Positions 35,240-64,000 of a stretch of DNA of 64,000 bases are shown here, one piece after another. Both the position numbers and the translations under genes were made by a program. A model generated the notes under the pieces. The model had not been told where the DNA came from. It did no database searches and was given only the letters and a program-made list of their open reading frames with translations. Origin of the DNA: a bacterium (GTDB lineage: Bacteria > Patescibacteriota > Saccharimonadia > Saccharimonadales > DATKHC01); assembly GCA_021781215.1 (NCBI GenBank), contig JAJXXC010000002.1, positions 83,371 to 147,370 of the forward strand. Reading direction: 5' to 3'. Numbering within the stretch: the first letter of the stretch is position 1; the number at the start of each line of letters is the position of its first letter.

Positions 35240-35254
35240 ACCACAACAACCTAT

Positions 35255-46101: not shown

Positions 46102-46160
46102 TCTTGAAAACTATCATATCTGAAACGGTATCGTGGGTTCGAATCCCACCCTCTCCGCCA
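46071..46160 (+). tRNA. tRNA-Ser (anticodon TGA), CCA encoded
   Basis: Acceptor GGAGAGG/CCTCTCC, anticodon stem ATAGT/ACTAT with loop CT-TGA-AA, a long variable arm, and T-arm GTGGG-TTCGAAT-CCCAC. The length is 90 nt. Confidence 0.9.
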
Positions 46161-48132: not shown

Positions 48133-48153
48133 TAAACAAAAATCTTACTAAAT

Positions 48154-48190
48154 AAAAAATAGGTAGCTATTAAAAAACTACCTATTTTTT
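48154..48190. terminator. bidirectional intrinsic terminator between convergent hsp20 and the pilin operon
   Basis: Perfect 13-bp stem AAAAAATAGGTAG / CTACCTATTTTTT with an 11-nt loop. The A-tract and T-tract give a U-run on either strand. Confidence 0.7.
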
Positions 48191-48211
48191 ATTTAAGAAT
48201 TTGGCTAGTTA

Positions 48212-48628
48212 TTAAAGGTGAGACGCCTTATTAAGTACAAACTTAACAATAATTTGTGCCAAAGCAACTACAATCAATCCAACTATAGCAAAAAGAATAG
48301 TATCTTTTGCGCTTGAGGTCTTTTCTGAGCTACCACCTGAAGTGATATATTTTACTCCACCAATAATAATCATAATGACGGCAATTATTCCTACTATTGC
48401 AGAGAACAAGTTAAGTACTAATGCTATTGTGTTATCGACAGTATTACCAGCAGCGCTGCCACATGTCGAACTACCGCTTGATGATGTTATGCTTCCAATA
48501 TTTCCCGTAGCACCACTACAAAGCGCGCCTGTATCCGCAGCATTCGCGATAGCCGGTGACGCAAGTGGCAAGCCGAGAGCTACAACTAACATAACTCCTA
48601 TTAATATTGATTTAAATCTACTAATCAT
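48212..48628 (-). CDS. VirB2/TrbC-like T4SS pilin paralog 1
   Basis: Signal peptide (AIANA), a Cys-x18-Cys variable segment, then FSAIVGIIAVIMIIIGGVKYITSGGSSEKTSSAKDTILFAIVGLIVVALAQIIV (two TM helices with a basic loop). Confidence 0.75.
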   Translation of the reverse strand: MISRFKSILIGVMLVVALGLPLASPAIANAADTGALCSGATGNIGSITSSSGSSTCGSAAGNTVDNTIALVLNLFSAIVGIIAVIMIIIGGVKYITSGGSSEKTSSAKDTILFAIVGLIVVALAQIIVKFVLNKASHL

Positions 48629-48691
48629 TTTAAATTTATTTACCTTTCTTGTTTCTTATTTAATTACATAATACATAAAAAATGTTTTTAA

Positions 48692-49090
48692 TTAAAGCTT
48701 TTGTGCTTTGTGAATAACAAATTGAACTATTATTTGGGCTATGGCAACAATAACCAGACCGATGATAGCATATAGTATAGTATTCTTTGCCTCATTTGTT
48801 CTTTCTGAATTACCATTGGAAGTGATATATTTTACTCCACCAATAATAATCATAATGACGGCAACAATGCCAACAATTGCAGAGAATATATTTAAGACAA
48901 GCCCCAGGGTGCCATTGAGAGATTGCCCGGATGCTTTTAATGAGTTACAGCCACCATTACTTATCACAGAAACACCTTTGCAGGCTTCGGACTGAGACGT
49001 CGTGTTGGACGCATAGGCAACAATCGGTAGGGCAAGGATCATTGAAAATCCGATAATTGGTATTATAAGTGGCTTAAAAATGTTTCTCAT
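48692..49090 (-). CDS. VirB2/TrbC-like T4SS pilin paralog 2
   Basis: Signal peptide, Cys-x10-Cys, then FSAIVGIVAVIMIIIGGVKYITSNGNSERTNEAKNTILYAIIGLVIVAIAQIIV. Confidence 0.75.
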   Translation of the reverse strand: MRNIFKPLIIPIIGFSMILALPIVAYASNTTSQSEACKGVSVISNGGCNSLKASGQSLNGTLGLVLNIFSAIVGIVAVIMIIIGGVKYITSNGNSERTNEAKNTILYAIIGLVIVAIAQIIVQFVIHKAQKL

Positions 49091-49497
49091 GACACCCTGC
49101 TAATTATAAATCCAATTATTATTCTAGCTAGTGCTATAACTATTAATCCAACCGAGGCGTAGATAATAGTATTTCGTGCACTAGAGATTTTTTCTGGCTT
49201 ACCGCTCGAAGTTATCATCTGAAGACCTGCAACTATAATCATGATAACAGCTACGAAGCCAGCAATTGCAGTAATGATATTAATAACATCATTTAAAACA
49301 CCATTTGTACCAATAATTGGATTAGTGGTTTGAGTATCCTTACAAAATGCAGAACTACTAACGTTACTGCCGGCGGTTGCACCACCACTACAAATTGGCG
49401 ACAAAGCATTAACCCGACCAGCGCCAAGGGTTAAAAAAATACCTACTACAACCACAGAGATTATTAACGATCTAATTGTCATATATTTTATTTTCAT
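49087..49497 (-). CDS. VirB2/TrbC-like T4SS pilin paralog 3
   Basis: Signal peptide, Cys-x15-Cys, then ITAIAGFVAVIMIIVAGLQMITSSGKPEKISSARNTIIYASVGLIVIALARIII. A 4-nt overlap joins it to paralog 2. Confidence 0.75.
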   Translation of the reverse strand: MKIKYMTIRSLIISVVVVGIFLTLGAGRVNALSPICSGGATAGSNVSSSAFCKDTQTTNPIIGTNGVLNDVINIITAIAGFVAVIMIIVAGLQMITSSGKPEKISSARNTIIYASVGLIVIALARIIIGFIISRVS

Positions 49498-49871
49498 TAA
49501 ATGTACCCTGCCACAAAACTAACAATTGTTACCGCAAATACGCAAACGATAAGGCCTATGGCTGCATAGAGAATAGTGTCTTTAGCTTTGGCGACCTCTT
49601 CTGGCTTGCCACTCGATGTAATAAATTTAAACCCAGCTAGTACTATAATCAGTACAGATACTGCGCCGACTACACTAAAGACAATATTTAATATTATGGC
49701 TATGGTGCTGTGATTAGCACAAACCTGAGGCAAGCTACTATAGTCTATACCAGAGGTTCCCGTGCTTTGAGTAGAACAAACGGAGCTTGCGGCATATACG
49801 CTACCGCCAATAATCAACTGAGTAAAGGTTAGTACGCCTAGGGCAACTATTGCAAGTTTAGAAATCTTCAT
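49497..49871 (-). CDS. VirB2/TrbC-like T4SS pilin paralog 4
   Basis: Signal peptide (VYAAS), Cys-x18-Cys, then FSVVGAVSVLIIVLAGFKFITSSGKPEEVAKAKDTILYAAIGLIVCVFAVTIV. Confidence 0.75.
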   Translation of the reverse strand: MKISKLAIVALGVLTFTQLIIGGSVYAASSVCSTQSTGTSGIDYSSLPQVCANHSTIAIILNIVFSVVGAVSVLIIVLAGFKFITSSGKPEEVAKAKDTILYAAIGLIVCVFAVTIVSFVAGYI

Positions 49872-49873
49872 AT

Positions 49874-50257
49874 TTAACCTAGCCTATATCCCAACCAATT
49901 AACAAGCGATGCAGCAACGATAGTAATAACTAAACCAACAAGAGCATTAATGATGGTCCCTCTGGCATGCTTAGTATTTTCGGGCTCACCCTGACTGGTT
50001 ATGTACTGAACTCCCCCGATAATCACAAAAATAACAGCCACAAGGCCCCCAATAATAAGTAGCATGTCCAAGATTGCTAATAAGACTAGGAGCAAGTTAT
50101 CTGGAGGCCAAAAGGTAAATGAATTAAAATTACAAGATCCGTCAGGGTTAGGAGTGACTTTAATATACTTATACCAAACCGGTAGACCAAAAAAAGTTTG
50201 ATTCGGATCACACACGGCTGCGAAATTTTTTATTGGTAAAAGGATATTTTCTAACAT
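49874..50257 (-). CDS. VirB2/TrbC-like T4SS pilin paralog 5 (no classical signal peptide)
   Basis: Cys-x25-Cys segment, then LLIIGGLVAVIFVIIGGVQYITSQGEPENTKHARGTIINALVGLVITIVAASLV. The N-terminus MLENILLPIKNFAAV is not signal-like. Confidence 0.65.
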   Translation of the reverse strand: MLENILLPIKNFAAVCDPNQTFFGLPVWYKYIKVTPNPDGSCNFNSFTFWPPDNLLLVLLAILDMLLIIGGLVAVIFVIIGGVQYITSQGEPENTKHARGTIINALVGLVITIVAASLVNWLGYRLG

Positions 50258-50275
50258 AAACCTATTGTATCCTAA

Positions 50276-52420
50276 CTAAATCCCTCCGGGAATTATAAAG
50301 TTTAAGAAAGCGTACAGCAGGAAGTAGGCAGCAAAACCGAGTAGGGCATTAAGTATTCGTTTTCTGGCAGCTTTTACGGCCTCGGGATTATCTCTAGAGG
50401 TTGAATACTGAACCCCTCCTACCACCACAGAAATAACAACCACCAAGCTTACCGCCACATTTAAGAATTTTATTAACGGGTTTATGTACGCTGTAACCAA
50501 ACAATTTGATCCATTATTTGACTTACAGCCATTTGGATCTGGTGCCGTAGTCGAACCCGCTGATTGATTTCCTAAACTCGGCAGACGTAACAGGGGATTA
50601 TTATTCTCTGCAGCGGCTAGGCTAAGATTTGGATTGGTCGAACAATCGGACGGAGACTGCTGAACCCAACCCATTTGACTGGCGTATGTTCCTGATGGAA
50701 TTACTATCGCAGAATAGCACTGGTTAGACTTAAAACTAAATTTACCGGTAGATGTTGGTGAACCGTTATAAGCCTGATAGTTGGTATCGACCACAGGATC
50801 GATGGACTCAACGTTATATTCACTCGGATTAGCTCCTGGACCACACTCATAGGTATAGCCGGTATTGTAATCGTAGCAAACACTGCTTGGGGTTGTAGAT
50901 CCCGTAGGATTAATGGACGAAGGGGATCCTGAACAAGCAACATCTGTTGGGGAACAGATGGATGTACTTATATTAGAGATATAGGTATATCCAGGGAGCT
51001 GAGGATATCCCGGCAATTCTGCACCATTTTCGCTTGGCGTACTGCCAGGTTGAAATAAACAGTTCAAACCCTGGCCACCACTAGGCCAACCATTAGTCCA
51101 ACCCACCGGCGCACCGCTTGAACTAGTTTTTGCATAATAAATATATCCTTCAGAGTTAGAGTTTCCAATATCCAAGTTACTAAGCGACTTGCTGGAACTT
51201 TTATTTACCAATATGAAGGGAAAGAACGCAGCAGTAGAACCATTAAGGCACGAGTTGGTAGTAAGGATTTGCCAATTAGGACCGGTTTTATTAACGCCTT
51301 GACTCGCTAAGACAGCTGCAGATCGAGTAGAATCGGGCTCTATGAGCTCACTTCCGCCATTTAAAGTAACTACAGTATTCGATGAGGTCCACTGAAACAT
51401 AGAATATTCCATCTGAGAATTTAATTTTGAAAGTGTAATAGGATACCCAGATTCTAATGCAGTGTTAATCGACCTGCCATAAAAAGTTCCATTAGTTGGA
51501 ACCTGGTAGGTGTTATTATTTGAACCAAAATAACAAAAACCCTGATTGGCAAATGTTGGTAAAAGCTGAACATCTGCATAATGCCCTCCGTTCGAAGTTA
51601 TTGCTACAATTCCTCCCATACAAGCAGTATTAGTTCCGGGGATAGGTTTGCCTGGGTCGATGGATACTAGCTTGCTGGAATTAGACGCATTCTCGGTAGG
51701 TAGATACAGCGTGTCGCCATCGTTTATAAAACGTGGGCCAGATGTCGCAAATTGCCCAACCCCATCCGTTGTGTAATAGGTTTTTGTCAGAGAATCATAG
51801 ATTTCGGTTGGGGATATAAATTTAAGATTTCCGGCGTATGAACCAGTGTCACTACTTATAACCTTGTGTCCGCTCGTATTTAACCAAGAAGTGTTCACCG
51901 TGATTATAGGATTGATCGCACCAGATATGTGATTAATCGTATAATCTACATCTTGACCGTTAAATTCTTCAATCAACGTCGGCTGATACTGTGATCGGCT
52001 ACCCTGAATCAGTAGTGTCTTTGGACTGCTCGGGTTTCCCGACGCCCCAAACACCATAGTCAAGGGATTTAAAACAAAACTTTGGCATCTTGACCCTTGG
52101 CCACAATTAACTAAATCGTATCCATAGACTATGCCGGTACCACCATCCATGTTTGGATCGGCGGTGCCACTCGGACCATTCCAGTCAAAAAAAGCCGTGT
52201 AAGACGTGCCGGCTATTGTGACCACTAGCTTAACTTTTGCTCCGCCATCCGTATAGCTAAAGACATACGTCGCAGTTTTTGGATTAGCAAAGGGGGCTAA
52301 TGCATAAGTCTTATGATTGAAGTAATTACCAAAAAAAGGAAGGGTCAGCACCAAGAAGCCTACAAACACCGAGACTTGTAAGAACCTAATAATTTGTTTT
52401 TTTATGTTTAAATAACGCAT
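50276..52420 (-). CDS. 714-aa Cys-rich G/S/T/N/P-rich ectodomain fused to a C-terminal VirB2/TrbC-like pilin module
   Basis: N-terminal signal/anchor (FLQVSVFVGFLVLTLPFF), a ~620-aa ectodomain with about 14 Cys, and a C-terminal VAVSLVVVISVVVGGVQYSTSRDNPEAVKAARKRILNALLGFAAYFLLYAF that aligns with the five pilin paralogs. Confidence 0.75.
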   Translation of the reverse strand: MRYLNIKKQIIRFLQVSVFVGFLVLTLPFFGNYFNHKTYALAPFANPKTATYVFSYTDGGAKVKLVVTIAGTSYTAFFDWNGPSGTADPNMDGGTGIVYGYDLVNCGQGSRCQSFVLNPLTMVFGASGNPSSPKTLLIQGSRSQYQPTLIEEFNGQDVDYTINHISGAINPIITVNTSWLNTSGHKVISSDTGSYAGNLKFISPTEIYDSLTKTYYTTDGVGQFATSGPRFINDGDTLYLPTENASNSSKLVSIDPGKPIPGTNTACMGGIVAITSNGGHYADVQLLPTFANQGFCYFGSNNNTYQVPTNGTFYGRSINTALESGYPITLSKLNSQMEYSMFQWTSSNTVVTLNGGSELIEPDSTRSAAVLASQGVNKTGPNWQILTTNSCLNGSTAAFFPFILVNKSSSKSLSNLDIGNSNSEGYIYYAKTSSSGAPVGWTNGWPSGGQGLNCLFQPGSTPSENGAELPGYPQLPGYTYISNISTSICSPTDVACSGSPSSINPTGSTTPSSVCYDYNTGYTYECGPGANPSEYNVESIDPVVDTNYQAYNGSPTSTGKFSFKSNQCYSAIVIPSGTYASQMGWVQQSPSDCSTNPNLSLAAAENNNPLLRLPSLGNQSAGSTTAPDPNGCKSNNGSNCLVTAYINPLIKFLNVAVSLVVVISVVVGGVQYSTSRDNPEAVKAARKRILNALLGFAAYFLLYAFLNFIIPGGI

Positions 52421-52485
52421 TGATCGCTGCCGAATTTTATACTAGTCAGTATACTCGATAATTGTACCAAAGGCTAATGCTTATG

Positions 52486-52491
52486 TATAAT
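52486..52491 (+). promoter_or_regulatory. -10 hexamer TATAAT, 6 nt from ATG 52498, head of the plus-strand T4SS operon
   Basis: The sequence reads atgTATAATttggtcATG. It lies in the 77-bp divergent spacer 52421-52497. Confidence 0.5.
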
Positions 52492-52497
52492 TTGGTC

Positions 52498-52965
52498 ATG
52501 CCTCCAACTTACCCAGAACAAAATAATCTTTATACGCCCGACGCCACGTTTAGTTATAGCCAAAAAACTAAAAGTTTTTGGAGGCAAAGGTCAACTAGAA
52601 TAGAAATAGCTATAGCCTTTTTAGTAACCGTTGGCCTAGCAATTACCTTATTCGAATTACGTAGTAGCCCACAGTCTGTAGCTAAACAATTTGTTTCATA
52701 TATAACAAATCAGCCGGCCAGCAAATCCTATCAACTCACTAGCACAGATTTTCGAGCAGCAATATCTCTTGCGACCTGGCAAATTGATATAAATTCTATA
52801 AAAAACACTTGCTCGAATAAATTTACCTTGACTTCAAGTACGAAGAAGGCGTTAACGGCAAGAACACTATTCTCAACGAGTGGAGCAAATGGTAATTGTC
52901 ATATAGAAGTTGACTTAATTAATAATTCTAACAAATGGCTAGTTGATTCATTCGTCTCTTACTAA
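52498..52965 (+). CDS. small bitopic protein; possible NTF2-like (VirB8-analog) component
   Basis: One TM segment (IEIAIAFLVTVGLAITLF) plus a ~100-aa ectodomain ending NSNKWLVDSF. The track start at 52462 is a TTG, and the promoter geometry favours 52498. Confidence 0.5.
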   Translation: MPPTYPEQNNLYTPDATFSYSQKTKSFWRQRSTRIEIAIAFLVTVGLAITLFELRSSPQSVAKQFVSYITNQPASKSYQLTSTDFRAAISLATWQIDINSIKNTCSNKFTLTSSTKKALTARTLFSTSGANGNCHIEVDLINNSNKWLVDSFVSY

Positions 52966-53046
52966 TATTTATAGATTTATTAAAAAACTTTTTTATTTCA
53001 AATAGTTAACGCAATCTTTCATAGTCTATATCAAATATCTCTCTAA

Positions 53047-53055
53047 TGTTATTAT
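53047..53055 (+). promoter_or_regulatory. extended -10 TGtTATTAT, 6 nt from ATG 53062
   Basis: The sequence reads aaTGtTATTATaggttaATG. Confidence 0.5.
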
Positions 53056-53061
53056 AGGTTA

Positions 53062-55281
53062 ATGGTAAGGAATAAAATAAAAATATGGGCATTTTTAAAA
53101 GTTGCCCTGATCGTTATGTCTCTGTCGAGTTTACTTATCATGTCCTCGCCAGTAAGTGCCTCGGCGCTTAGTTTGAGTAATAATACAGTTGCGACATCTG
53201 CCGCCCCCGGAATTAATTGTAGCGTCGATTTTAACCCGACTACCTGGCTTATCTGTCCTTTAATTTCTGGTATGTCTGCGGTTGTTGAAGGTTTTGACAG
53301 CTACATAACATCGGCACTAACAATCGATCCTTGTGTTTATTTTAATGCAAGTACCGCCCCCGATCCATCATGCAGCAAACAGTCCTCTAACACACCAGCC
53401 TCGAGCCAAAGTAATATTACTAGTACTGGTTTTTACACAGCCTGGTCTTCATTTAGAGACATAGCGCTGGGTCTAATGGTAATTGGGGCTCTTATAATGG
53501 TAATCTCGCAGATTGTTGGATTTGAGCTACTTGACGCCTATACAATTAGAAAAGTCCTACCAAGAATAATAATTGCCGCGATTGGCATATCGCTCTCTTG
53601 GCAATTGATGCAATTTTTAATTCAATTTTCTAACGATTTGGGTAATGGGATTAGTTACTTAATCTATCACCCATTCACAACCGGGGCAAACTCAATAAGT
53701 AACAAAGGTGTTGTTATTACTAATGGTGTTAGTTCGGCTGGAGCTATTTTGAGCTTTGCAGCTATTACCACCCTAGGGATTATGGCTACATTATCTTTTG
53801 TCCTAGTTGCTTTAGTTGCTGCATTTTTAGGCTTTGCAGTAGTTGTATTGAGACAGATTTTAATTATCTTTTTAGCTCTATTATCTCCAATTGCTATCGC
53901 TATGTTCATCTTGCCAGGAACTTCAAAAGTTTGGAAGTTGTGGTGGAACACCTTTTTTAAAGCCTTGCTAATGTTTCCTTTAATTATCGGCATGATAGCT
54001 ATTGGCAGAGTTTTTGCAGCAATCAGTAGCCAAAACGGTGGAAGTATTGGCCAATTCATTGCCTTTATAGCATACTTTGGCCCATATTTTATTATCCCTC
54101 AAACTTTTAAATTTGCCGGTGGAATCCTTAGCGCCGCCGGTGGAGCTGCAAGCAGAACAAATAAAGCATTTGGGAAAGCTGCAGGTGAATATCGAGGAAG
54201 GGAGCGAAAACGACTTGCAGAATTGGGGGCAAGAGGAGAACGTTTTAGGCACGGTAAACAAACCGGTTTTAGCGGCTTTTTAAACAGGAGAACTATCGGA
54301 ATATCATCTGGGGTCGGAGGACGATTCGGTATTGGCGAAAGAGGAGCTAGTAAAATTGAACAGATACAAAAAGACAGAGACGTAGCAAATCTATCCGAAA
54401 ATAAAAGTCTAATGAACTTAGCCCAAACAAGTAGTGAAGGAATAGCTATATTAGCCGCCTCTGGGGGGACTGTTCAAGGCGCAAGACAGGCGAGGAATCG
54501 ACTAAAGAGCCTGATGGTAGAGAATGATGTAGCGGATAAAATTGCTAAAAAACCCGGGGCTACAAGCGACGATATAGCAGTATTTAGAACAAATGCGGAA
54601 GCAAGTGCAGAGGCTGCTACACAGAGTGGTTTTTTGCAAGCGCAAGCAGTTGGCTTCACGACCTCAAACTCAAGAGGTGCGTTTAATGCGGCTGCGGCTA
54701 ATAAGTGGCGGGCTCTGGGGCCAATAGGTGCAAATGACTTTATAGACGAAGGGCTTAGTAGAGCTTACAGCAATAGCGATACCCTAAAAGCAGAGGCTGC
54801 CCAAACTCAAGCGTATAATGCCAGAAAGAGCGGTAGAACCGATATAGGTGGCGTAGACAAAACAACTGGTAAAACGAGTGCGTCTGACGGCTTCGCTAAG
54901 GCTGGCGCTCACGCAGTTGCCAGAGATTACGGTGACTCACTAAAATCTCAAGTTAATCGACTTCTTAGGGATCTAGGTGGAAGCAATGCTAAAGACTCAA
55001 TAGATGCCGCAGCACAGCTTGCTGCCCTAAGGGGGGCTATGGGGCCAGACCTACCTCTATCTAATCAAATAATAATTAATGATGCCCTTGAAAAAGCAGG
55101 CGTTAATTTAGGTTCTGATGAAGATGTAGCTACACAACTCGGAGCGTTGGTCGCAAGCAAAAGCCCAACACCAACAACCTCAAAAGAGATGGCCAACATT
55201 ATTCGTCACCGAATTGGAGCATATGTTGGGCCTCCTATGGGTGGAATGGGTGGTCAACCTCCAATAGCTCCAGAAGAATAG
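53062..55281 (+). CDS. VirB6/TrbL-like polytopic T4SS membrane protein with a long Ala/Gly-rich C-terminal domain
   Basis: Signal peptide (PVSASA), then about 6-7 TM helices between residues 130-360, then a ~370-aa hydrophilic tail. The position next to PrgI-like and VirB4 genes supports the call. Confidence 0.55.
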   Translation: MVRNKIKIWAFLKVALIVMSLSSLLIMSSPVSASALSLSNNTVATSAAPGINCSVDFNPTTWLICPLISGMSAVVEGFDSYITSALTIDPCVYFNASTAPDPSCSKQSSNTPASSQSNITSTGFYTAWSSFRDIALGLMVIGALIMVISQIVGFELLDAYTIRKVLPRIIIAAIGISLSWQLMQFLIQFSNDLGNGISYLIYHPFTTGANSISNKGVVITNGVSSAGAILSFAAITTLGIMATLSFVLVALVAAFLGFAVVVLRQILIIFLALLSPIAIAMFILPGTSKVWKLWWNTFFKALLMFPLIIGMIAIGRVFAAISSQNGGSIGQFIAFIAYFGPYFIIPQTFKFAGGILSAAGGAASRTNKAFGKAAGEYRGRERKRLAELGARGERFRHGKQTGFSGFLNRRTIGISSGVGGRFGIGERGASKIEQIQKDRDVANLSENKSLMNLAQTSSEGIAILAASGGTVQGARQARNRLKSLMVENDVADKIAKKPGATSDDIAVFRTNAEASAEAATQSGFLQAQAVGFTTSNSRGAFNAAAANKWRALGPIGANDFIDEGLSRAYSNSDTLKAEAAQTQAYNARKSGRTDIGGVDKTTGKTSASDGFAKAGAHAVARDYGDSLKSQVNRLLRDLGGSNAKDSIDAAAQLAALRGAMGPDLPLSNQIIINDALEKAGVNLGSDEDVATQLGALVASKSPTPTTSKEMANIIRHRIGAYVGPPMGGMGGQPPIAPEE

Positions 55282-55293
55282 ATCATCAAGGAA

Positions 55294-55320
55294 GTAATGC
55301 TTTACTAATAAAAGCATTAC
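55294..55320 (+). other. perfect 10-bp intercistronic hairpin (GTAATGCTTT-N7-AAAGCATTAC)
   Basis: It lies 13 nt after the VirB6-like stop and 18 nt before ATG 55339. No U-tract follows it. Confidence 0.5.
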
Positions 55321-55338
55321 CACTAATATTTAATAGTA

Positions 55339-56298
55339 ATGGCACAATATAAAGTAATCCAAGACATAGAGGCTGAAGATAAATTACTAGGCCCCTTAAC
55401 CCTTAAACAATTTATCTATGCAGCTATTACAATTATTCTAGGATTTATTGCCTATAAACTGGCCACAATATCGCCTTATGTAATAATTCTATTTTTGCCT
55501 GAAATGCTTTTTTTTGGGCTATTGGCTGCGCCTTTTGGGATTGATCAGCCTAACGAAATCTGGCTACTTGCTAAAATTAGATTTTATTTAAAGCCTCAGA
55601 TTAGAAAATGGGATCAAGATGGAATTGGGGGGCTAGTTACCGTTACTGCACCCAAAAAAATTGAAAAAAAATTAACTAAAGACTTTACGGCTACCGAAGC
55701 AAGAGGCAGACTAGAATCTTTAGCCAAAACACTGGATGCTGGTGGCTGGGTTAGGACCAGCCCCGGATCAGCTCTATTTAAAATAGGCTTCGGGAAGCCT
55801 TCGGAAGATAGATTGGTCGATCTAGGCTCGATAGCATCAGATCAACCAACCCCAGACATAATAGACCAAGACGATATTTTTGATGACAGTAATCTTCAGG
55901 TTCGTCACATAAGTTCGGTTATGGCTCAAAATGAAAAGAAAATTAAGGACTACCAAAAAAACCTAGTAAGCCCTACCGTAGCACCGGTACTATCATCAGA
56001 CGAGGCATCTGTCCCTAGGCCCGTAGAAAACTTTCAGTCGCCGAGAAACTATATAGCAGAAACACCGGTGCAGCCAGCCTTCAGCCCGATTGAATCACAA
56101 TTTAAGCCAAAAAATAATATTCCCACAAATCCGTTACAAAACATAGTGGCTTCAAACTATCAATCTCCGATGACAAGTCAACCCGATAATGCTAAAATTA
56201 ATGTACTTGCTAGAGACAATAATCGTTCTATCGCCTCTCTAAAACGTGAATTTAGTGGTGGGGATGATTCTGGTGAAGTGGTAATATCGCTCCACTAG
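55339..56298 (+). CDS. PrgI-family (VirB3-like) T4SS membrane protein with extended C-terminus
   Basis: MAQYKVIQDIEAEDKLLGPLTLKQFIYAAITIILGFIAYKLA plus a second TM segment matches the PrgI family start pattern as I recall it. Confidence 0.55.
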   Translation: MAQYKVIQDIEAEDKLLGPLTLKQFIYAAITIILGFIAYKLATISPYVIILFLPEMLFFGLLAAPFGIDQPNEIWLLAKIRFYLKPQIRKWDQDGIGGLVTVTAPKKIEKKLTKDFTATEARGRLESLAKTLDAGGWVRTSPGSALFKIGFGKPSEDRLVDLGSIASDQPTPDIIDQDDIFDDSNLQVRHISSVMAQNEKKIKDYQKNLVSPTVAPVLSSDEASVPRPVENFQSPRNYIAETPVQPAFSPIESQFKPKNNIPTNPLQNIVASNYQSPMTSQPDNAKINVLARDNNRSIASLKREFSGGDDSGEVVISLH

Positions 56299-56330
56299 TA
56301 GCATTAATAAATCATAAATTACAAATTTTC

Positions 56331-57185
56331 ATGGATCCAAATATAAATAATTCAATTGACCCAAATAGTTACCAGAAATTTGGCGAATCATATAATCAGC
56401 AATCAGTTGCTCCAGCTCCTCCTTTAAGTTCTCAAAAATCTCAATCCAGAAAAAGTAATCCTAGCAGTGCTCAAAATAGTTTACAGATTGCTGAAATAAG
56501 GGATGGTCTAGTAATAATGAAGGATGGCTCGTTCAGGTCTGTTGTTATGGTTAAGGCAATCAACTTTGATTTAATGAGTGGCGAAGAGAGAGAAGCTGTT
56601 GAGTACGCCTATCAAGGTTTTCTTAATTCTCTTTACTTCCCAATTCAAATCTTTATTCATTCAGAGAAAATAGACATTAAGCCCTATCTAGACCTACTAC
56701 AAAAAGTCAGAGGAAACCAAGATAACATGCTACTGGCCTTGCTCATGGATGATTATATAGAGTATATGTTCGCATTGTCACAACAGGCCAATATCATGGA
56801 TAAGCAATTCTATGTTGTTGTGCCTTATTCGCCGGCCGAAGAGCTAAAGCCCGATATATCATCGAGTAAAAATTTCTTTACTGGCTTAGTGGACATATTC
56901 TCTAGCAGCAGCAGAAAAGTTACTATTGATGAGCCTTCGCTTATTAAAGCGAAGGACGAACTAAGAAATCGAGTTCAGGCGCTACTAAGCGGTTTACAGC
57001 AGTCCGGTATTCAAGGAATACCACTAGACACACAAGAACTAATTGAATTGTATTACAACACCTATAATCCAGACACTTCAGTCAGGCAGCAACTTAAAGA
57101 TTTTGATGGCTTGGCTGCACCTATCGTTACAAGGGGTGAAGGCGCTGCACCCAGTCCAATCACCATGAATGGGGCTAATAACTAA
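56331..57185 (+). CDS. stand-alone VirB4 N-terminal-domain-like protein
   Basis: IAEIRDGLVIMKDGSFRSVVMVKAINFDLMSGEEREAVEYAYQGFLNSL matches the extreme N-terminal region of Gram-positive VirB4/TraE-type ATPases. The gene ends TAA-t-ATG with the next gene. Confidence 0.5.
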   Translation: MDPNINNSIDPNSYQKFGESYNQQSVAPAPPLSSQKSQSRKSNPSSAQNSLQIAEIRDGLVIMKDGSFRSVVMVKAINFDLMSGEEREAVEYAYQGFLNSLYFPIQIFIHSEKIDIKPYLDLLQKVRGNQDNMLLALLMDDYIEYMFALSQQANIMDKQFYVVVPYSPAEELKPDISSSKNFFTGLVDIFSSSSRKVTIDEPSLIKAKDELRNRVQALLSGLQQSGIQGIPLDTQELIELYYNTYNPDTSVRQQLKDFDGLAAPIVTRGEGAAPSPITMNGANN

Positions 57186-57186
57186 T

Positions 57187-59082
57187 ATGGCATTATTTAA
57201 AAAACCCAAGCTTGATCCAGTAACCGTTGCCCAACTTCAGCAAACTGCCGAAAAACATGAAGTAGATGCAGCTTTTAACAAAGGGATTGTTGATTTACGT
57301 GACTTTATAGCACCGAGCTCACTAGAATTTAAAAGCACTTATTTCCAACTTGGTACCAAATACGCCAGATCTTACTATGTTTATGGCTACCCTAGACAAG
57401 TATTCACCGGGTGGATGAGCAGTCTAGTCAATACCGACGAGGTCTTAGACATATCAATGTATATATATCCAGTTAATGGCCGCGTTGTATTAGAAAATCT
57501 GAGAAAAAAAGTAAGTCAACTTGAAGCTGGAATTCAAATTGATAACGAAAAGGGCAAGGTTAGGGATCCCGGTAAACAGGCCGCAATACAAGACGCCGAA
57601 GAAATGCGAGACAAGTTACAGGTTGGCGAAGAACACTTCTTCCGTCTAGGTTTTTACTTCACCCTTTATGGGAACAGCATAGATGAACTCGATTTTGTAT
57701 CACATAAAATCGAGAGCCTTCTAGGTCAACAATTAATTTATTCAAAGCCGGCTAGCTCTCAACAAGAACAAACCATGAACTCAGTAATTCCTCAGTTTAC
57801 CGACCAACTTCAAATTCGTAGGAACTTTGGTACCGGTGCGCTTAGTACTAGCTTCCCATTTACTAGCGCCAACTTAAGCGATGGCAAAGGGATTCTCTAC
57901 GGAGTTAATATGCATAATTCGGGACTGGTCTTGTTTGATAGATGGAGCCTGGAGAATAGCAACTCGGTAGTGTTTGCAAAATCAGGTGCAGGGAAATCAT
58001 TTGCCGTAAAACTTGAGGCGCTGAGAAGCATGATGTTCGGAACCGAGATTTTTATTATCGATCCAGAAAATGAGTACCAGAAAATGGCTGAAGCGGTCGG
58101 TGGAGCATACATTAGACTCAGCTTAAATTCAACAGTTAGGATAAATCCATTTGATTTACCGAAAGTAATAGATAGCGAAGATGTCGATAGCGCGCTCCGT
58201 ACCAACCTAATAACTCTTCATGGGTTGTTTAGACTCATGATGGGTGGTGCGCAAGTACAACTACTGGGCGCAACAGCTGCAACCCTCCCGGCCCTAAGTC
58301 CTGTCGAAGAGTCTGACCTTGATACGGCCTTAATTCAGACCTATTCAAAAGCAGGGATAACCAACGATCCTCTAACGCACGTAAGTAAGCCTCCGACCAT
58401 ATCCGACCTCTATGACGTTTTATTGCACATGGGCGGAACAGGACCTCAGCTTGCTCAAAGACTAAGAAAATATACCACTGGAACATTTGCCGGTATTTTT
58501 TCTCAACAAAGTAACATCAACATAGATAACCCAATGGTGGTCTTCAATATTCGAGATCTTGAAGACGAGCTAAGGCCGGTGGCAATGTATATTGTTCTAA
58601 ACTATATTTGGAATAAAACTAAAACTGACCAGAGACGCAGAATGTTGATAGTAGATGAAGCCTGGCAGTTAATGAAATACGAGGATACTGCTAACTTCTT
58701 ATTTAGCGTAGCCAAACGGGCTAGAAAATATAATCTGGGAATCACTACAATAACCCAGGACGTTGAAGATTTTATTGGCTCAAGAATGGGAAGAGCCATA
58801 GTGGCTAACGCGTCGATGCAGCTACTGTTAAAACAGTCGTCGAGTGCTATAGACTTATTGGCTGATGTATTTAAGCTAACTAGCGAAGAGAAGAAAAGAC
58901 TGCCCCAATTCCCAGTTGGTCAAGGTCTATTCTTTGCTGGTCAAAATCATGTGGCAATCCAAATCATTGCTAGCGAAACTGAGACCAATCTTATATCCAC
59001 AACCCCTCCACCCCAGCTTATTGACCTTGATAAGATAAATAATCAATCTGCTAACAATGATCAAGGAACAGCACCCGTCTAA
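57187..59082 (+). CDS. virB4: VirB4-family T4SS ATPase
   Basis: FIAPSSLEFKSTYFQLGTKYARSYYVYGYPRQVFTGWMSSL (VirB4 N-domain), Walker A AKSGAGKSFA, Walker B RRMLIVDEAWQL and the ITQDVEDF motif. Confidence 0.88.
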   Translation: MALFKKPKLDPVTVAQLQQTAEKHEVDAAFNKGIVDLRDFIAPSSLEFKSTYFQLGTKYARSYYVYGYPRQVFTGWMSSLVNTDEVLDISMYIYPVNGRVVLENLRKKVSQLEAGIQIDNEKGKVRDPGKQAAIQDAEEMRDKLQVGEEHFFRLGFYFTLYGNSIDELDFVSHKIESLLGQQLIYSKPASSQQEQTMNSVIPQFTDQLQIRRNFGTGALSTSFPFTSANLSDGKGILYGVNMHNSGLVLFDRWSLENSNSVVFAKSGAGKSFAVKLEALRSMMFGTEIFIIDPENEYQKMAEAVGGAYIRLSLNSTVRINPFDLPKVIDSEDVDSALRTNLITLHGLFRLMMGGAQVQLLGATAATLPALSPVEESDLDTALIQTYSKAGITNDPLTHVSKPPTISDLYDVLLHMGGTGPQLAQRLRKYTTGTFAGIFSQQSNINIDNPMVVFNIRDLEDELRPVAMYIVLNYIWNKTKTDQRRRMLIVDEAWQLMKYEDTANFLFSVAKRARKYNLGITTITQDVEDFIGSRMGRAIVANASMQLLLKQSSSAIDLLADVFKLTSEEKKRLPQFPVGQGLFFAGQNHVAIQIIASETETNLISTTPPPQLIDLDKINNQSANNDQGTAPV

Positions 59083-59111
59083 TAAATTTGGCTTAGCCCA
59101 ACTATTATCTG

Positions 59112-59117
59112 TAAAAT
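59112..59117 (+). promoter_or_regulatory. -10-like hexamer TAAAAT, 6 nt from ATG 59124 (possible internal promoter)
   Basis: The sequence reads ctgTAAAATaagcatATG. This could be chance in AT-rich DNA. Confidence 0.3.
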
Positions 59118-59123
59118 AAGCAT

Positions 59124-61820
59124 ATGTCACTAGACTTTTTAGAAAATGGTTACCAAGATGACTCTAATACATACAGCCCACTAAACTTTGAGTCTGGAGA
59201 TCTGATCCCATCGCCCGATACTCTCAAAGAACAAGAAAATGCAGACGAGCAAGCAGAAAATAGCGAAAACTTATACAATCCCAAAAAAAGTAACAATAAG
59301 CTCTCTAAGAAGCTGTTTTCTGCTGTTAAAAAGAATAAGGCCCTCGCTTTAGCTGGAGGAGGAATTGGTGGCGGAGTGCTAGTTCTTATAGTCTTAGTGT
59401 TTATTCTGGCTCAACAATTACCAAGTTTTGCTGCTCTTTTAGCCTCTCAATCAATGGCAAGAGCTAATCGTGCGTTTGAAAATAATACAACTCAACTCAC
59501 CTCGGAAGATATAGCGCTATCAGAAGAATCTTCAGCTAACAAATCAATAATTGAATCTAGCTACAGTGACGCTAATACGGGCGGTCTTTTATCAAAATTA
59601 AAAAGCTATACACCAAGTGGGGCAATAAATAATCTTGAAGGTGCCGGGACGCTTGAATATAATTATGGAAAAGTCAGTAGTGGAGTTGGAAAGTTAATAG
59701 GAGCAAAAGAGCTTAAAAGTATAACCGTTAATACGCCGACGGGCAGTCAGGAATTTTTAGCATCAGATATAGCTCCCAGTAAATGGGATACAGTAATGCA
59801 TCCTTTGCAAACATTTAATAATCGCGCATCATCTATATCTGATTTTTCTAATGCCCTTGGTTCGGTTGATGAATCAGGCTCCGTATTGCTTAGGTTTGGT
59901 GTTTTAAAACAATTAGTATCTGACCTGGGCGGAAACCCTTTGTCGGGTATATTTAGCTCCAAATTCATAAATAAATCTGCAAACGCATCTGATATAGAAC
60001 TTGATATGGAGGCGCAGCAAGCTATAAGCCCTCCGAGCGATATTCCCGTCACACCCCTTACAGATGCCCTTAACAGTGCTGTGACCGATGCACAAAATGT
60101 TCAAAATGCTGACGCTACAAATCCAGCTGCAATCGAAAACATCATTAAAAATGGCGGAACGCAAACTGATGTTAATAACGCCATAACTAAGGCCACGTCA
60201 AGCCTAACAAATAGTAGTCTTTTGTCTAAGCTTAGCATTACTTACGCGATTGGTGTTCCGGCATGTATTATTTTTGACGGTTCGCTGCAAACTCCGAACG
60301 CAAACAAAACAATCGACAAACAAGACAGTGAGGTTGCTAGAACCTACCTGCTAGTTGAAAGTAGTGCAGCCCAAGAAAAGGCCGGTCAACTGAATGCTGC
60401 TGCTGCGGGCGCTATTAACAGAAAGCTTGGAAACATTACTCAATCAAATGTTTATTCTAAAGCTTACGGCAAATCCTTTAATACCAATAGCAATATACTA
60501 AGCCCTCAGGCGGGTGTAGATGGACAATATTCCATATTCTCCGCTCTTTTTCCACAAAAAATAGCCGGAACCATAAATCCTATAGCCAGTAAATTATGTC
60601 CTATATTAACTAGCCCCAAAGTAGCAATTGCGGTTATTGGAGCTCAGGTCCTTTCGTATATTGGAGGCATCTTTACTGGTGGGCTATCCGACGCGGTAGA
60701 AGTAAATGCCACAATAGCTGCCAAAGAGGCTGTTGATGAGGCTCTTTCGACCGGAATTTCAGATATTACATCTGGAATAACTCAGGATGTAGTATCTAGT
60801 GTTGCGGCAAACGGGTCTGCAAAACAAATAGCATCTCAAACCCTTGGAGGTATTCTAAAAGAACAAAGTGCTAAATTGTATGAATATGTTATGGGGGGTA
60901 ATTTAACAAAAACTGTCGGCACGACTGCTGGAGCTGTCGCTACAACCTACGGATTAACCATGCTCGCACAACAAGTAGTAAGACAAGACCTGGGAACTAC
61001 TTATAATGGGTATAGCCAGGGAACAGATTTTGCTAATCAGGCTGCGGCGGGAGGGAATGTGCTTGCAAATCAAACAATGCAACATCAGTATTTCGGTGCG
61101 CCATTAAGCACTCAACAGGTCGCCATCAATAATGCCAGTGACATAAAATATTTAGCAAAACAAAATAGTACGAAATCTGCTTATCAAAGGTATCTTGCAA
61201 TAGACAACCCATACTCATTAATATCAAAACTTTCTTTAAATCTATATTCCGACATAACTAGCCTCTCGCCAAAATCACTTATTCAAAAAATTGCTTCAAT
61301 GATTAATCCAACGAAGCTATTCTCTGACCTATTTTTATTATTCAGGGGCAAAACAATAGCCGCCACGCCGAACACAACAGATGAGAGTAATTATGGTATT
61401 GTTCAATGGGGATATACTGGTGCAGAAGAGGCTCTAATAAACCCAACCACAGGCGACCCAAGCTATCAGCCACTAGAAAACGCCAAAGCACTAACCCAGC
61501 AGACTGAAAAAGTATTACCGAGCGGACAAACTGTTGGTCAATACATAGATAGTACCTATAGCCCTTGTTTCAGTGACAGTATGGGAACTCTATTAACGAC
61601 TAGCCCCTCGACCGGACCAGACACTACTGATAAATACATCGTAAGAAGTTCGACCGGTGATGTCATTGGAGGATTGTGTAGTCAGAAATATCTAGGGCCT
61701 AACAGCATGGATCCCACTATTGCTCCGTACGGAAAAGACTTAATCTTTAGGTGGAGAGTTGATAGCGCCTATCAACAGTCATTAGATTTATTAAATGGGG
61801 TCCAGAATGCTAATCAATAG
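59124..61820 (+). CDS. 898-aa bitopic protein of the T4SS-like operon (acidic cytoplasmic N-terminus, TM, large A/S/G/T/N/Q-rich ectodomain)
   Basis: The TM segment is ALALAGGGIGGGVLVLIVLVFILA at about residue 75. I recognise no domain. The position between VirB4 and the wall hydrolase suggests a channel or scaffold role. Confidence 0.6.
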   Translation: MSLDFLENGYQDDSNTYSPLNFESGDLIPSPDTLKEQENADEQAENSENLYNPKKSNNKLSKKLFSAVKKNKALALAGGGIGGGVLVLIVLVFILAQQLPSFAALLASQSMARANRAFENNTTQLTSEDIALSEESSANKSIIESSYSDANTGGLLSKLKSYTPSGAINNLEGAGTLEYNYGKVSSGVGKLIGAKELKSITVNTPTGSQEFLASDIAPSKWDTVMHPLQTFNNRASSISDFSNALGSVDESGSVLLRFGVLKQLVSDLGGNPLSGIFSSKFINKSANASDIELDMEAQQAISPPSDIPVTPLTDALNSAVTDAQNVQNADATNPAAIENIIKNGGTQTDVNNAITKATSSLTNSSLLSKLSITYAIGVPACIIFDGSLQTPNANKTIDKQDSEVARTYLLVESSAAQEKAGQLNAAAAGAINRKLGNITQSNVYSKAYGKSFNTNSNILSPQAGVDGQYSIFSALFPQKIAGTINPIASKLCPILTSPKVAIAVIGAQVLSYIGGIFTGGLSDAVEVNATIAAKEAVDEALSTGISDITSGITQDVVSSVAANGSAKQIASQTLGGILKEQSAKLYEYVMGGNLTKTVGTTAGAVATTYGLTMLAQQVVRQDLGTTYNGYSQGTDFANQAAAGGNVLANQTMQHQYFGAPLSTQQVAINNASDIKYLAKQNSTKSAYQRYLAIDNPYSLISKLSLNLYSDITSLSPKSLIQKIASMINPTKLFSDLFLLFRGKTIAATPNTTDESNYGIVQWGYTGAEEALINPTTGDPSYQPLENAKALTQQTEKVLPSGQTVGQYIDSTYSPCFSDSMGTLLTTSPSTGPDTTDKYIVRSSTGDVIGGLCSQKYLGPNSMDPTIAPYGKDLIFRWRVDSAYQQSLDLLNGVQNANQ

Positions 61821-63306
61821 ATTAAAAAAATTCTTAACTGTTGTACTCTCATTACTATCAACTATTATTTTAGTCTGCTATGGAATAGCAGGTGCGTCTC
61901 CTAGCAGTGACCTCCAGTCTATATTAGACGGAACGTCCTACTATAATCCTTCTGCAACATCGTGTGGAGCATATGGAACGGTTCCAATTCCAACCATTTC
62001 TGCAAATGCTGCATCGAGCGGTACTTGGACAGGGGGGCCAAAGACAGGCCCATATTACTTAGAAGAGTTTGCAATTCAAGTATTACAAGATGTAGCAAAA
62101 AAAACCAACACCCCAGTCGGAAATGTTTTAACCCAAGAACACGTTATCGCGTTAATTGGCTGGTTTTATAGAGAAGGCGGTGACATAGCCGATGGTCCTC
62201 CGCAAAACAACAATTATCCAAATTTATTCAATCCTCTCAATACGTCTATTAATGACCCTACTATTGAAAACACAAACGCACCAGGAGGAGTTGAGTCATT
62301 TCTGTCTTTCAACGATGGGGTAGAGGGGACTGCCAGGACTATAGTCGGGTCTTATCAAAACCGTATTGCTGCAATATTAACCCAACAATATTCAACCGCA
62401 GAACAAGTTGCGGAGACCATTGCTAATTTTCAAAATTATCCAGGTAATCTTGCTTGGGCATCACCAGGGGGGAACCCAACACAAGCTGAAGTGATAGCAG
62501 ATAATCAAAATGTTTATCTTCCGTCATTATTAACCCAGATAGAACAAGCTAGAACTAATTACATAAATGAAGCGACTCTAGAACTAGGCACTCCGCAGGC
62601 AGAATCGTTTATACCCAGTGATCATGTAGCTGCTAGCCTACTCCAATACCAACCGACCGCAAGTAGCTCTACAGGAATTAGCACTAACATCGGTAATCAA
62701 CCCGATACCAGTGCTAGCGCCTCAGGATGTGCAACTAACGTCTCGTGTAACAATAGTGCACCGACATCAGCTAGCTCGTCGCAGCTTACCCAAGTGAGAC
62801 AAAATATAGTTTGCATTGCCACCAATGAACTACAAGAACACTGGACGCCAATATCTTCAACAACTAAATACTCATACTACTTAACATACACTCAGGGCGC
62901 GACAGAAGAATGGTGTGCAGATTTTGCTAGCTGGGTTTATAATCAAGCCGGCGCACCGTTTGGTGTTAATGGAAACTGGCGAGAACCTTCGGTCGCTGGA
63001 ATTGTGTCGTTAGCCCAACAAAGCCAGGGTTTCCAGTGGCATCCACAATCATCAGGATACATACCAGTACCCGGAGATCTAGCGATTTATTATGACTCCT
63101 CCAGTTCTGCCCCGTATTATCACGTAACAGTTGTTGTTGCTGTTAATGGTGGTTCAGTTATTACAATAGGTGGTGATCAAACAAACCCCTTATATCCAAA
63201 CAATACAAACTATGGCAACAGTAACAGCAATTCTGTTGTGTCTATATCTGGTAATCAAAGTGAATATAGTAGCGGGGGGATAGCTGGCTATGTATCGCCA
63301 GATTAA
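61807..63306 (+). CDS. secreted cell-wall hydrolase with C-terminal CHAP domain (VirB1-analog)
   Basis: N-terminal anchor. The CHAP catalytic Cys lies in EEWCADFASWVYNQAG and the His in APYYHVTVVVAV...TIGGDQ. The ATG at 61807 has GGGG 7 nt upstream. The track start is 61795. Confidence 0.75.
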   Translation: MLINRLKKFLTVVLSLLSTIILVCYGIAGASPSSDLQSILDGTSYYNPSATSCGAYGTVPIPTISANAASSGTWTGGPKTGPYYLEEFAIQVLQDVAKKTNTPVGNVLTQEHVIALIGWFYREGGDIADGPPQNNNYPNLFNPLNTSINDPTIENTNAPGGVESFLSFNDGVEGTARTIVGSYQNRIAAILTQQYSTAEQVAETIANFQNYPGNLAWASPGGNPTQAEVIADNQNVYLPSLLTQIEQARTNYINEATLELGTPQAESFIPSDHVAASLLQYQPTASSSTGISTNIGNQPDTSASASGCATNVSCNNSAPTSASSSQLTQVRQNIVCIATNELQEHWTPISSTTKYSYYLTYTQGATEEWCADFASWVYNQAGAPFGVNGNWREPSVAGIVSLAQQSQGFQWHPQSSGYIPVPGDLAIYYDSSSSAPYYHVTVVVAVNGGSVITIGGDQTNPLYPNNTNYGNSNSNSVVSISGNQSEYSSGGIAGYVSPD

Positions 63307-63315
63307 GGAAGTATT

Positions 63316-63960
63316 ATGACAAAGACACGAATATCGGTATTTATAGTAATTATATTGTCACTATTTCTTTTGATGTTTATTAATAGTAAAAATAGTGGTT
63401 TTCGAATAATTAAATATAGCCCTCCCCTGAATAGCGTATCGACTATTACCCCGTATATCGATGTAGATTTTAGTGATCCGTTAGCAAGTACTGGATTATA
63501 TATTTACTCTTATCAAAACATCGTCAGTTCTTACAAAATATTCAATTCAAACTACTTACGAATTTATTTAAAAGTTCCTCTTCAAATAGGTATAAAATAT
63601 CAACTAAAATTTGTTAGCGTTATGAATAAATCAAATGGCTATATCAAGGACAGCGTTATATCATTCTCGCCCAAGAACGTTGGTGCGTCGTCTCTAACCA
63701 AAGATCAAATTAAATATTTAACCGATACTCAAAACAAATCGACAACTCAAATATATAACACTAGCCTTGTTGGTATATTGCCATACCTGTCTCCTGGTGA
63801 CGAGTTTTTAGTTAGCTATGAACAAATTAACGGAACACCCTATATTACAATAACTAGTGCATCTCAACAAGGATACAATAATGGTATTTTATGGATATCT
63901 AGCCAAGGATATAACCCCTCGAAATTAAACATAAAATATATAGACCAACAGCCTTACTGA
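63316..63960 (+). CDS. anchored hypothetical protein, last visible gene of the T4SS-like operon
   Basis: Signal anchor (ISVFIVIILSLFLLMFI). FRIIKYSPPLNSVSTITPYIDVDFSDPL resembles the start of SbsA-type Ig-like domains (weak). Confidence 0.55.
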   Translation: MTKTRISVFIVIILSLFLLMFINSKNSGFRIIKYSPPLNSVSTITPYIDVDFSDPLASTGLYIYSYQNIVSSYKIFNSNYLRIYLKVPLQIGIKYQLKFVSVMNKSNGYIKDSVISFSPKNVGASSLTKDQIKYLTDTQNKSTTQIYNTSLVGILPYLSPGDEFLVSYEQINGTPYITITSASQQGYNNGILWISSQGYNPSKLNIKYIDQQPY

Positions 63961-64000
63961 GTAACGATTATATTGGCCGTTTTATCAAAATGCTTAATTA

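Follow-up and report, generated by a model that had tools for sequence, protein, structure and literature searches.

Introduction

The closest described counterpart of the locus analysed here is the T4SS (type IV secretion system) of Southlakia epibionticum ML1, encoded by SEML1_0006-0019. Wang et al. (2023, PMC10633639) found that system to be most like Gram-positive conjugative systems, essential by transposon sequencing (Tn-seq), equipped with essential pilins inside the cluster and without recognisable coupling or relaxase proteins, and suggested protein export or another capacity as its role. The published gene series runs dnaA, dnaN, recF, 0004, 0005 (PEGA/Ig-like, 211 aa), 0006 (two lysozyme domains and a Cys-protease), 0007 (1113 aa), 0008 (VirB4), 0009, 0010 (PrgI), 0011 (VirB6-like), 0012 (NTF2-like, matched to 4ec6), 0013 (VirB6-like), 0014-0019 (six pilins), 0020 (Hsp20) and 0022 (tRNA-Ser), and nearly all genes of the series are essential (PMC10633639). 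We analysed a corresponding T4SS locus in a 64,000-nucleotide stretch of contig JAJXXC010000002.1 (hereafter the window), from a bacterium of the order Saccharimonadales (Saccharibacteria).

Systems of this kind have since been surveyed across the phylum. Among 2,474 virB4 genes, the Patescibacteria VirB4 clade adjoins the MPF_FATA class (Quinonero-Coronel et al. 2025, PMC12102498). The accompanying genes included TrsD, PrgI/VirB3, VirB6 and 441 VirB2 arrays of 2-11 genes with a mean identity of 25% (PMC12102498). Relaxases were nearly absent, occurring in only 103 Patescibacteria genomes, and the T4SS lay near dnaA/dnaN (PMC12102498). A 2025 FEMS review highlights the six-pilin array and its essentiality (PMC12857230), and a 2024 PNAS perspective proposes ComB-like uptake while calling the role of the system 'completely unknown' (PMC11665869).

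We conclude that the locus in the window is, with high probability, a chromosomal and vertically inherited Patescibacteria-type T4SS, orthologous to SEML1_0004-0019 and lying beside recF-dnaN-dnaA, which serves as a non-conjugative conduit for macromolecules to the host.

Results

A chromosomal secretion locus abutting the replication-origin genes

The minus-strand pilin operon (48212-52420) diverges from a plus-strand secretion-machine operon, with the open reading frame (ORF) coordinates of the initial annotation of the window (Table 1). The plus-strand genes encode, in order, a bitopic protein, a VirB6-like protein, PrgI/VirB3, a TrsD-like protein, VirB4, an 898-aa anchored protein, a CHAP hydrolase and a 214-aa anchored protein. 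The parts present are those of an MPF_FATA-like monoderm inner-membrane translocon (VirB6-like, PrgI/VirB3 and a split VirB4), together with an anchored CHAP wall hydrolase and six pilin-module proteins. No VirB7, VirB8, VirB9 or VirB10 envelope-core match was found in any ORF of the locus with Pfam or NCBIfam.

The right border is set by recF. On a public contig (L003) with an identical 214-aa gene, recF (SMC_N/AAA_23) overlaps the end of that gene by 7 nt and is followed by dnaN and a fragment of dnaA. The locus thus ends at 63960, directly beside the genes of the replication origin. It had been proposed initially that a relaxase, VirD4 and integrase with flanking att repeats immediately downstream would make the locus an ordinary integrative and conjugative element (ICE); recF, dnaN and dnaA stand there instead, and the 5.7 kb beyond the window contain no relaxase, coupling protein or integrase. 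Within the window likewise, none of the ORFs of 110 aa or longer was a relaxase, VirD4/TcpA-type coupling ATPase or integrase by Pfam scans or precomputed Pfam tables, in agreement with the initial annotation, a result that holds for the window only. The remaining ORFs of the window are housekeeping and other genes, including polA, rpoD, dnaG, argS, groEL, valS, mur ligases, a two-component system and a sortase.

We compared the locus with its relatives in other genomes. Relatives of VirB4 with 77-82% identity occurred in no fewer than 570 genome stretches, whose titles all name Saccharibacteria, Saccharimonadales or Patescibacteria. In 42/42 related loci, these being the retrieved Saccharimonadales loci with full 10-kb flanks, the genes run from (hsp20) through a minus-strand pilin array, plus-strand virB6-prgI-trsD-virB4 and variable genes to recF-dnaN-dnaA. 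The same order and flanks throughout indicate an old, vertically inherited chromosomal locus rather than a mobile element. att repeats were not searched for explicitly; an integrase was not found, and the flanks were the same in all 42 relatives. The family matches and this synteny bear out the initial view of a Gram-positive core combined with a pilin set, chromosomal and non-conjugative, in a Saccharibacteria-type genome.

A split VirB4 of Gram-positive affinity

The 631-aa protein scored 349 bits on NF045971 (conju_CD1110; cut-off 325), aligning to profile positions 182-734, and covered positions 283-893 of the Mycoplasma ICE VirB4 model. Its Pfam matches were P-loop_TraG (98 bits), AAA_10 and DUF87. 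The nearest solved structure was PDB 4ag5, the C-terminal domain of VirB4 from the Gram-positive Thermoanaerobacter (E 3e-48), compared with 2e-5 for the Gram-negative TrwK. These profile and structure-sequence matches, rather than a tree, point to an MPF_FATA affinity for this VirB4.

The preceding 284-aa protein aligned to N-terminal positions of the VirB4 models (2-75 of CD1110, 90-252 of Mbov_0397 and 19-129 of TIGR00929); its TrsD and VirB4-model matches lie under the curated cut-offs. Judged by their positions on these models, the 284-aa and 631-aa proteins are complementary parts of one VirB4, in a TrsD + TrsE-type arrangement as in pGO1, and the split VirB4 of the initial annotation was therefore upheld. 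An assembly frameshift was considered as the cause of the split and rejected: the two parts are separate ORFs in 75/75 related loci and in S. epibionticum.

The PrgI/VirB3-like protein, also named initially, exceeded its Pfam cut-off (Table 1). The VirB6-like call for the 739-aa protein rests on PF19590 (TrbL_3), under which it is listed in precomputed Pfam tables, on its topology, on its gene position and on the published structural annotation of its orthologue. The position is conserved in 63 loci. TrbL (PF04610) was matched weakly by 3/36 orthologues of the protein, and a profile of the VirB6 orthologues searched against PDB returned coiled-coil noise only. PDB sequence searches with the 284-, 739-, 898-, 499- and 214-aa proteins gave nothing significant. 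The precomputed matches of the 739-aa protein (PF19590) and the 284-aa protein (PF26593, TraC-like) were absent from a direct Pfam-A hmmscan even at E<=1, an unexplained discrepancy between tools. The membrane topologies given initially for the proteins of the locus agreed with their hydrophobic segments.

Five small pilins and a giant-ectodomain pilin

All six minus-strand genes had been described as sharing a two-helix module. The five small proteins (124-138 aa, 48212-50257) scored 47-58 bits (E 1e-12 to 1e-16) against Pfam PF18895 (T4SS_pilin), above its gathering cut-off of 26.6 bits, and the module of the 714-aa protein scored 22.3 bits (E 1.4e-4), just under that threshold. The threshold of PF04956 (TrbC/VirB2) was not reached by the pilins (12.6-21.2 bits versus 27.9). 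By these scores the pilins belong to PF18895, a sister family of PF04956. Against NF045849, a Mycoplasma-ICE pilin-like family, pilin 1 scored 35.6 bits, under the cut-off of 40, and the 714-aa protein 27.1 bits. An N-terminal signal-like hydrophobic segment is present in four of the five small pilins and absent from pilin 5. Exactly two cysteines lie in the variable stretch before helix 1 in 5/5 small pilins, and this pair may form a disulfide-bonded loop. Mutual identity among the six pilin-module paralogues is 29-52%, and related loci mostly carry six pilin-module genes.

The 714-aa protein, encoded by the first gene of the operon, joins a Cys/Ser/Thr/Asn-rich ectodomain to a pilin module at residues about 640-712, which is 29-38% identical to the modules of the five small pilins. 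At the same position, 51 relatives have a protein of only 105-337 aa, and a homologue search with the 714-aa protein returned two proteins.

In relatives of the locus, extended VirB6 proteins have an N-terminal ectodomain homologous to that of the 714-aa pilin (~500-600 aa); the match to one protein (P0003, L088:118-3735) has 36% identity (E 1e-69). Among 1.84 billion representative proteins the ectodomain had only ten relatives, six of them with a pilin module at the end and three with VirB6. In the three VirB6-type proteins (1202-1261 aa) the polytopic region aligns with the 739-aa protein of the window. The in-locus VirB6 proteins of two further contigs, L034 (3155-6862) and L040 (1618-5469), carry the same ectodomain at the N-terminus. 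Among relatives the N-terminal extension of VirB6 ranges from 0 to ~535 residues, and the VirB6 of the window has none. A trade-off between first-pilin length and VirB6 length was not found across 51 loci (Spearman -0.04). Two of the 36 VirB6 orthologues matched Pfam Peptidase_S74 (E 1.3e-7), which phage tail fibres and endosialidases carry as an intramolecular chaperone, a hint that some VirB6 proteins bear receptor-binding extensions resembling tail fibres.

We read the ectodomain as apparently a single surface module carried by either VirB6 or the operon-first pilin. Its function can only be inferred, because AlphaFold2 prediction from a two-sequence alignment was unusable (pLDDT 32). It is probably a movable host-recognition module; that it is a portable module which has moved within the clade between VirB6 and a VirB2-like pilin is a tentative and rather doubtful proposal. 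As the ectodomain is common to VirB6 and the first pilin, both N-termini can be argued to face the host. If the module is indeed portable, the two N-termini would hold corresponding, host-facing places in the assembled machine, and the pilin encoded first in the operon would be a tip or initiator subunit, a VirB5 analogue setting host specificity; this would offer an initial clue to the contact between the Patescibacteria T4SS and its host. This sharing is the sole detail here that looks new, and is a modest lead. It points to subunits that may determine host range, and so to a target for swap experiments in cultivable Saccharibacteria.

Other proteins of the operon

The small bitopic protein has the topology, with one transmembrane (TM) segment, that is expected of a VirB8/NTF2-like component. 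A homologue search of a 5.8-billion-protein database gave one protein, and none outside its own cluster. Its family comprises ~10 small bitopic proteins in related loci, on either strand. AlphaFold2 prediction from the single sequence was unusable (pLDDT 41). A profile of 10 relatives gave weak NTF2-like hints only, to MecA_N (NTF2-like, E 2e-4, one member) and DUF4864 (E 3.5e-3); the best match in a PDB profile search of the family was YoeB/IseA (E 0.036), which we do not interpret. The protein may be the elusive VirB8 analogue.

The 898-aa anchored protein had no Pfam, NCBIfam or PDB match. Relatives of ~27% identity occur in 23 loci, and a homologue search with the protein returned four proteins. 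Its C-terminal ~150 residues contain no His, which makes a DD-peptidase domain unlikely; the domain of that type reported for SEML1_0007 is probably absent from it. A homologue (33% identity over 850 aa) is encoded at 3972-6536 of the metagenomic contig L088, directly after the ectodomain-VirB6 gene, with no PrgI, TrsD or VirB4 gene between the two and a glucosaminidase-like gene next, so that these parts stand in another arrangement there. The CHAP hydrolase that follows in the window was identified correctly in the initial annotation, and gene callers moved its start (Table 1). It is the functional counterpart of VirB1.

Table 1. Coordinates of the features of the T4SS locus, as positions in the window
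Feature	Position	Strand	Remarks
Bidirectional terminator-like hairpin	48149..48195	.	between convergent hsp20 and the last pilin gene
VirB2-like pilin 1, 138 aa	48212..48628	-	signal peptide, Cys-pair variable loop, two-helix module; PF18895 51.2 bits
VirB2-like pilin 2, 132 aa	48692..49090	-	PF18895 57.8 bits; 52% identity to pilin 1
VirB2-like pilin 3, 136 aa (gene callers 131 aa)	49087..49497	-	PF18895 48.5 bits
VirB2-like pilin 4, 124 aa	49497..49871	-	PF18895 52.8 bits
VirB2-like pilin 5, 127 aa	49874..50257	-	PF18895 47.4 bits; two hydrophobic segments only
First gene of pilin operon, 714 aa	50276..52420	-	signal anchor, ~600-aa ectodomain, C-terminal pilin module
Divergent intergenic region	52421..52482	.	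between pilin operon and secretion-machine operon; 62 bp by gene-caller start
Small bitopic protein, 160 aa	52483..52965	+	TM segment 40-58; position of NTF2-like/VirB8-like SEML1_0012
VirB6/TrbL-like polytopic protein, 739 aa	53062..55281	+	~6-7 hydrophobic segments; long hydrophilic C-terminal tail
PrgI/VirB3-like protein, 319 aa	55339..56298	+	PF12666 35.5 bits versus cut-off 27, residues 5-90
TrsD-like protein, 284 aa	56331..57185	+	corresponds to the N-terminal part of VirB4, here detached; NF041427 TrsD 29.5 bits; precomputed PF26593 TraC-like
VirB4 ATPase, 631 aa	57187..59082	+	Walker A SGAGKS, Walker B MLIVDEAW; NF045971 match
Membrane-anchored protein, 898 aa	59124..61820	+	TM segment 77-95; positional counterpart of SEML1_0007
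Anchored CHAP wall hydrolase, 499 aa	61807..63306	+	PF05257 42.1 bits versus cut-off 26, residues 370-460
Anchored/exported protein, 214 aa	63316..63960	+	N-terminal hydrophobic segment; no family match; positional counterpart of SEML1_0005
recF 3' end	63954..64000	-	convergent; right border of locus; dnaN, dnaA beyond window

Regulatory signals and other features of the window

The divergence of the two operons stood as first described, with a spacer of 62 rather than 77 bp, since gene callers place the start of the bitopic gene at 52483. The region has one sigma-70-like match, on the minus strand at 52489-52461. We claim no promoter, because promoter-like matches in the region were no commoner in a promoter scan than in shuffled sequence. 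The terminator placed initially at 48154-48190 was recovered as a slightly wider hairpin, with an 18-bp perfect stem (48149-48166 / 48178-48195), an 11-nt loop and A/T runs in its arms. Its stability is -18.4 kcal/mol (z -8.5), and 0/200 shuffles were equally stable. A consensus terminator scan missed it because the loop is longer than 8 nt.

To the left of the pilin operon, at a distance of 2-3.5 kb, the tRNA genes Arg-GCG, Ser-GCT and Ser-TGA are clustered at 44785-46160. The 3' end of an ORF for a PD-(D/E)XK endonuclease (45715-46101) overlaps tRNA-Ser (46071-46160) by 31 nt. A tRNA-Ser also stands at the matching place in S. epibionticum.

Large anchored or secreted proteins encoded at 43467-44768 (+) and 35255-36991 (-) gave weak DUF3472 matches (E about 9e-5) and may be paralogous surface proteins; in the former, a Thr/Pro-rich stalk and a TM segment at the C-terminus are also present. 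A CarS-like gene (CDP-archaeol synthase family, PF01864, E 3e-31) at 11766-12323 (+) adjoins a CDP-alcohol phosphatidyltransferase gene, and is a bacterial representative of a lipid enzyme family of archaeal type. Two further entries come from precomputed tables: a cytochrome b-like protein (PF00033/PF13631) at about 33850-35240 (+), unexpected in a lineage said to be without a respiratory chain, and an Ice_binding-domain protein at 38164-39000 (-).

Discussion

A proposed conduit between epibiont and host

Taken together as a machine, the parts suggest the following mechanism. The CHAP hydrolase would open the peptidoglycan and PrgI would dock VirB4 and TrsD onto VirB6. VirB4/TrsD would then supply the energy to extract pilins from the membrane and polymerise them into a short heteropolymeric pilus or conduit, which would reach the actinobacterial host carrying the epibiont. 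The large variable ectodomain of the 714-aa pilin, borne on VirB6 itself in relatives, would act as a host-recognition or tip subunit. The conduit would move macromolecules between epibiont and host, and would not serve conjugation.

Several points weigh against this interpretation. For this organism the evidence consists of sequence only, and to our knowledge no Patescibacterium has ever been observed with a T4SS pilus. A VirB8 homologue could not be established by AlphaFold2 or family-profile searches of the 160-aa protein, and the tip-adhesin role of the 714-aa protein is purely inferred. The 739-aa protein, called VirB6/TrbL-like from the outset, kept that call by topology, position and the precomputed Pfam match, whereas a direct Pfam hmmscan (E<=1) and PDB searches found no match for it. 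Homologues of the type IV coupling protein (T4CP) lie far from virB4 in many genomes (PMC12102498), and a coupling protein may therefore exist elsewhere in this genome.

Conjugation is nevertheless very unlikely. On that explanation the locus would be the transfer module of an ordinary Gram-positive-type ICE or plasmid, its relaxase, coupling protein and integrase lying outside the inspected stretch. The placement of VirB4 in the conjugative family conju_CD1110, the presence of PrgI, TrsD and CHAP as typical MPF_FATA parts and the three tRNA genes 2-3.5 kb left of the pilin operon would all suit such an element. We regard it as extremely improbable: the window ORFs of at least 110 aa include no relaxase, T4CP or integrase, the right end directly adjoins recF-dnaN-dnaA, position and flanks are the same in 42/42 relatives, which fits vertical inheritance across an order, and relaxases are confined to 103 Patescibacteria genomes (PMC12102498). 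A machine used mainly for adhesion, in which a pilus of variable paralogues with a big ectodomain tethers the epibiont and nothing is translocated, is improbable to a lesser degree. The six divergent pilin paralogues (29-52% identity) and the hypervariable ectodomain on the first pilin or VirB6 speak for it, as does the use of T4SS pili for attachment in other systems (PMC12857230). Yet the full set of channel, ATPase and wall hydrolase is conserved, with VirB4 at 77-82% identity, and Saccharibacteria already adhere by type IV pili (PMC10633639, PMC12857230).

Import is a possible alternative that deserves more weight than either of these, and we do not favour it. A ComB-like machine would take up DNA, nucleotides or other macromolecules from the attached host and so feed an organism unable to make nucleotides. 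This agrees with the lack of a relaxase or T4CP in view and has been proposed in the literature, ComEC being dispensable and the T4SS essential in S. epibionticum (PMC12102498, PMC12857230, PMC11665869). The same dispensability also counts against it, as known uptake T4SSs pass DNA to ComEC, which is not required in S. epibionticum (PMC12857230). Moreover, the ComB-specific diderm parts (VirB7/9/10 homologues) were not found, the operons showed neither a DNA-binding nor a nuclease component, and import stands everywhere as a proposal. Sequence data cannot separate ComB-like import, effector export and pure adhesion. Within the preferred reading of a macromolecule conduit to the host, we lean slightly towards protein export or host manipulation over import.

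Comparison with known systems

The system of S. epibionticum, compared here from published gene tables and not from its sequences, is collinear with that of the window from dnaA-dnaN-recF, by way of VirB4 and a TrsD-like gene, to the divergent pilins, Hsp20 and tRNA-Ser, and also has no relaxase or coupling protein in the cluster. It differs in that its VirB6-like genes number two (998 and 1088 aa) and its pilins, all six of them, are small (103-185 aa), whereas the window has a single short VirB6-like protein (739 aa) and five small pilins plus the 714-aa giant-ectodomain pilin. The hydrolase of S. epibionticum combines two lysozyme domains with a Cys-protease, and that of the window an unknown N-terminal domain with CHAP. 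The extra gene 0004 before recF in S. epibionticum has no counterpart in the window.

Every feature of the Patescibacteria-clade T4SS in the survey (PMC12102498) recurs in the window: the VirB4 affinity, TrsD beside VirB4, PrgI/VirB3, a probable VirB6, a pilin array, no relaxase and proximity to dnaA. The survey makes no mention of large-ectodomain pilins or of an ectodomain shared with VirB6, and otherwise there is no essential difference. The Gram-positive MPF_FATA T4SSs (pGO1 TrsD/TrsE, CTn2 CD1110, pCF10 PrgI and pIP501) resemble the window in their CD1110-family VirB4, upstream TrsD (pGO1), PrgI and CHAP-type hydrolase, and in having no outer-membrane core parts. Unlike those conjugative systems, the locus of the window has no relaxase, T4CP or PrgB-type adhesin, possesses a pilin array and is chromosomal, origin-proximal and vertically inherited.

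Mycoplasma ICEs (Mbov_0395 pilin-like, Mbov_0397 VirB4), from wall-less monoderms, share with the window a small two-helix pilin-like protein, with all matches of the window to their models under the curated cut-offs (35.6 versus 40 bits; 266 versus 590). They are mobile and have one pilin-like gene, in contrast to the array of the window. As the window pilins and VirB4 resemble Mycoplasma ICE families, these ICEs appear to be at least one other exception to the statement that monoderm T4SSs lack VirB2-like proteins. The ComB system of Helicobacter pylori is likewise a T4SS without relaxase or coupling protein, and its non-conjugative use has a probable parallel in the window; ComB is a diderm VirB2-4/6-10 set, whereas no VirB7/8/9/10 homologues were detected in the window. 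Extended VirB6 proteins, as in Rickettsiales (PMC12857230), have a parallel in relatives of the locus, with up to ~535 extra N-terminal residues. Unlike those systems, the window has the extension on a pilin module and none on its own VirB6.

The architecture, which the initial annotation believed undissected, was published in 2023 (PMC10633639), surveyed in 2025 (PMC12102498) and reviewed in 2025 (PMC12857230), and the two functions suggested in that annotation, effector delivery and ComB-like uptake, had likewise been published before. The window adds one more orthologous copy of a system that stands alone among T4SSs in being known as essential for the growth of its owner, stands alone among monoderm T4SSs in having a pilin array and is central to the exploitation of hosts by these ultrasmall epibionts.

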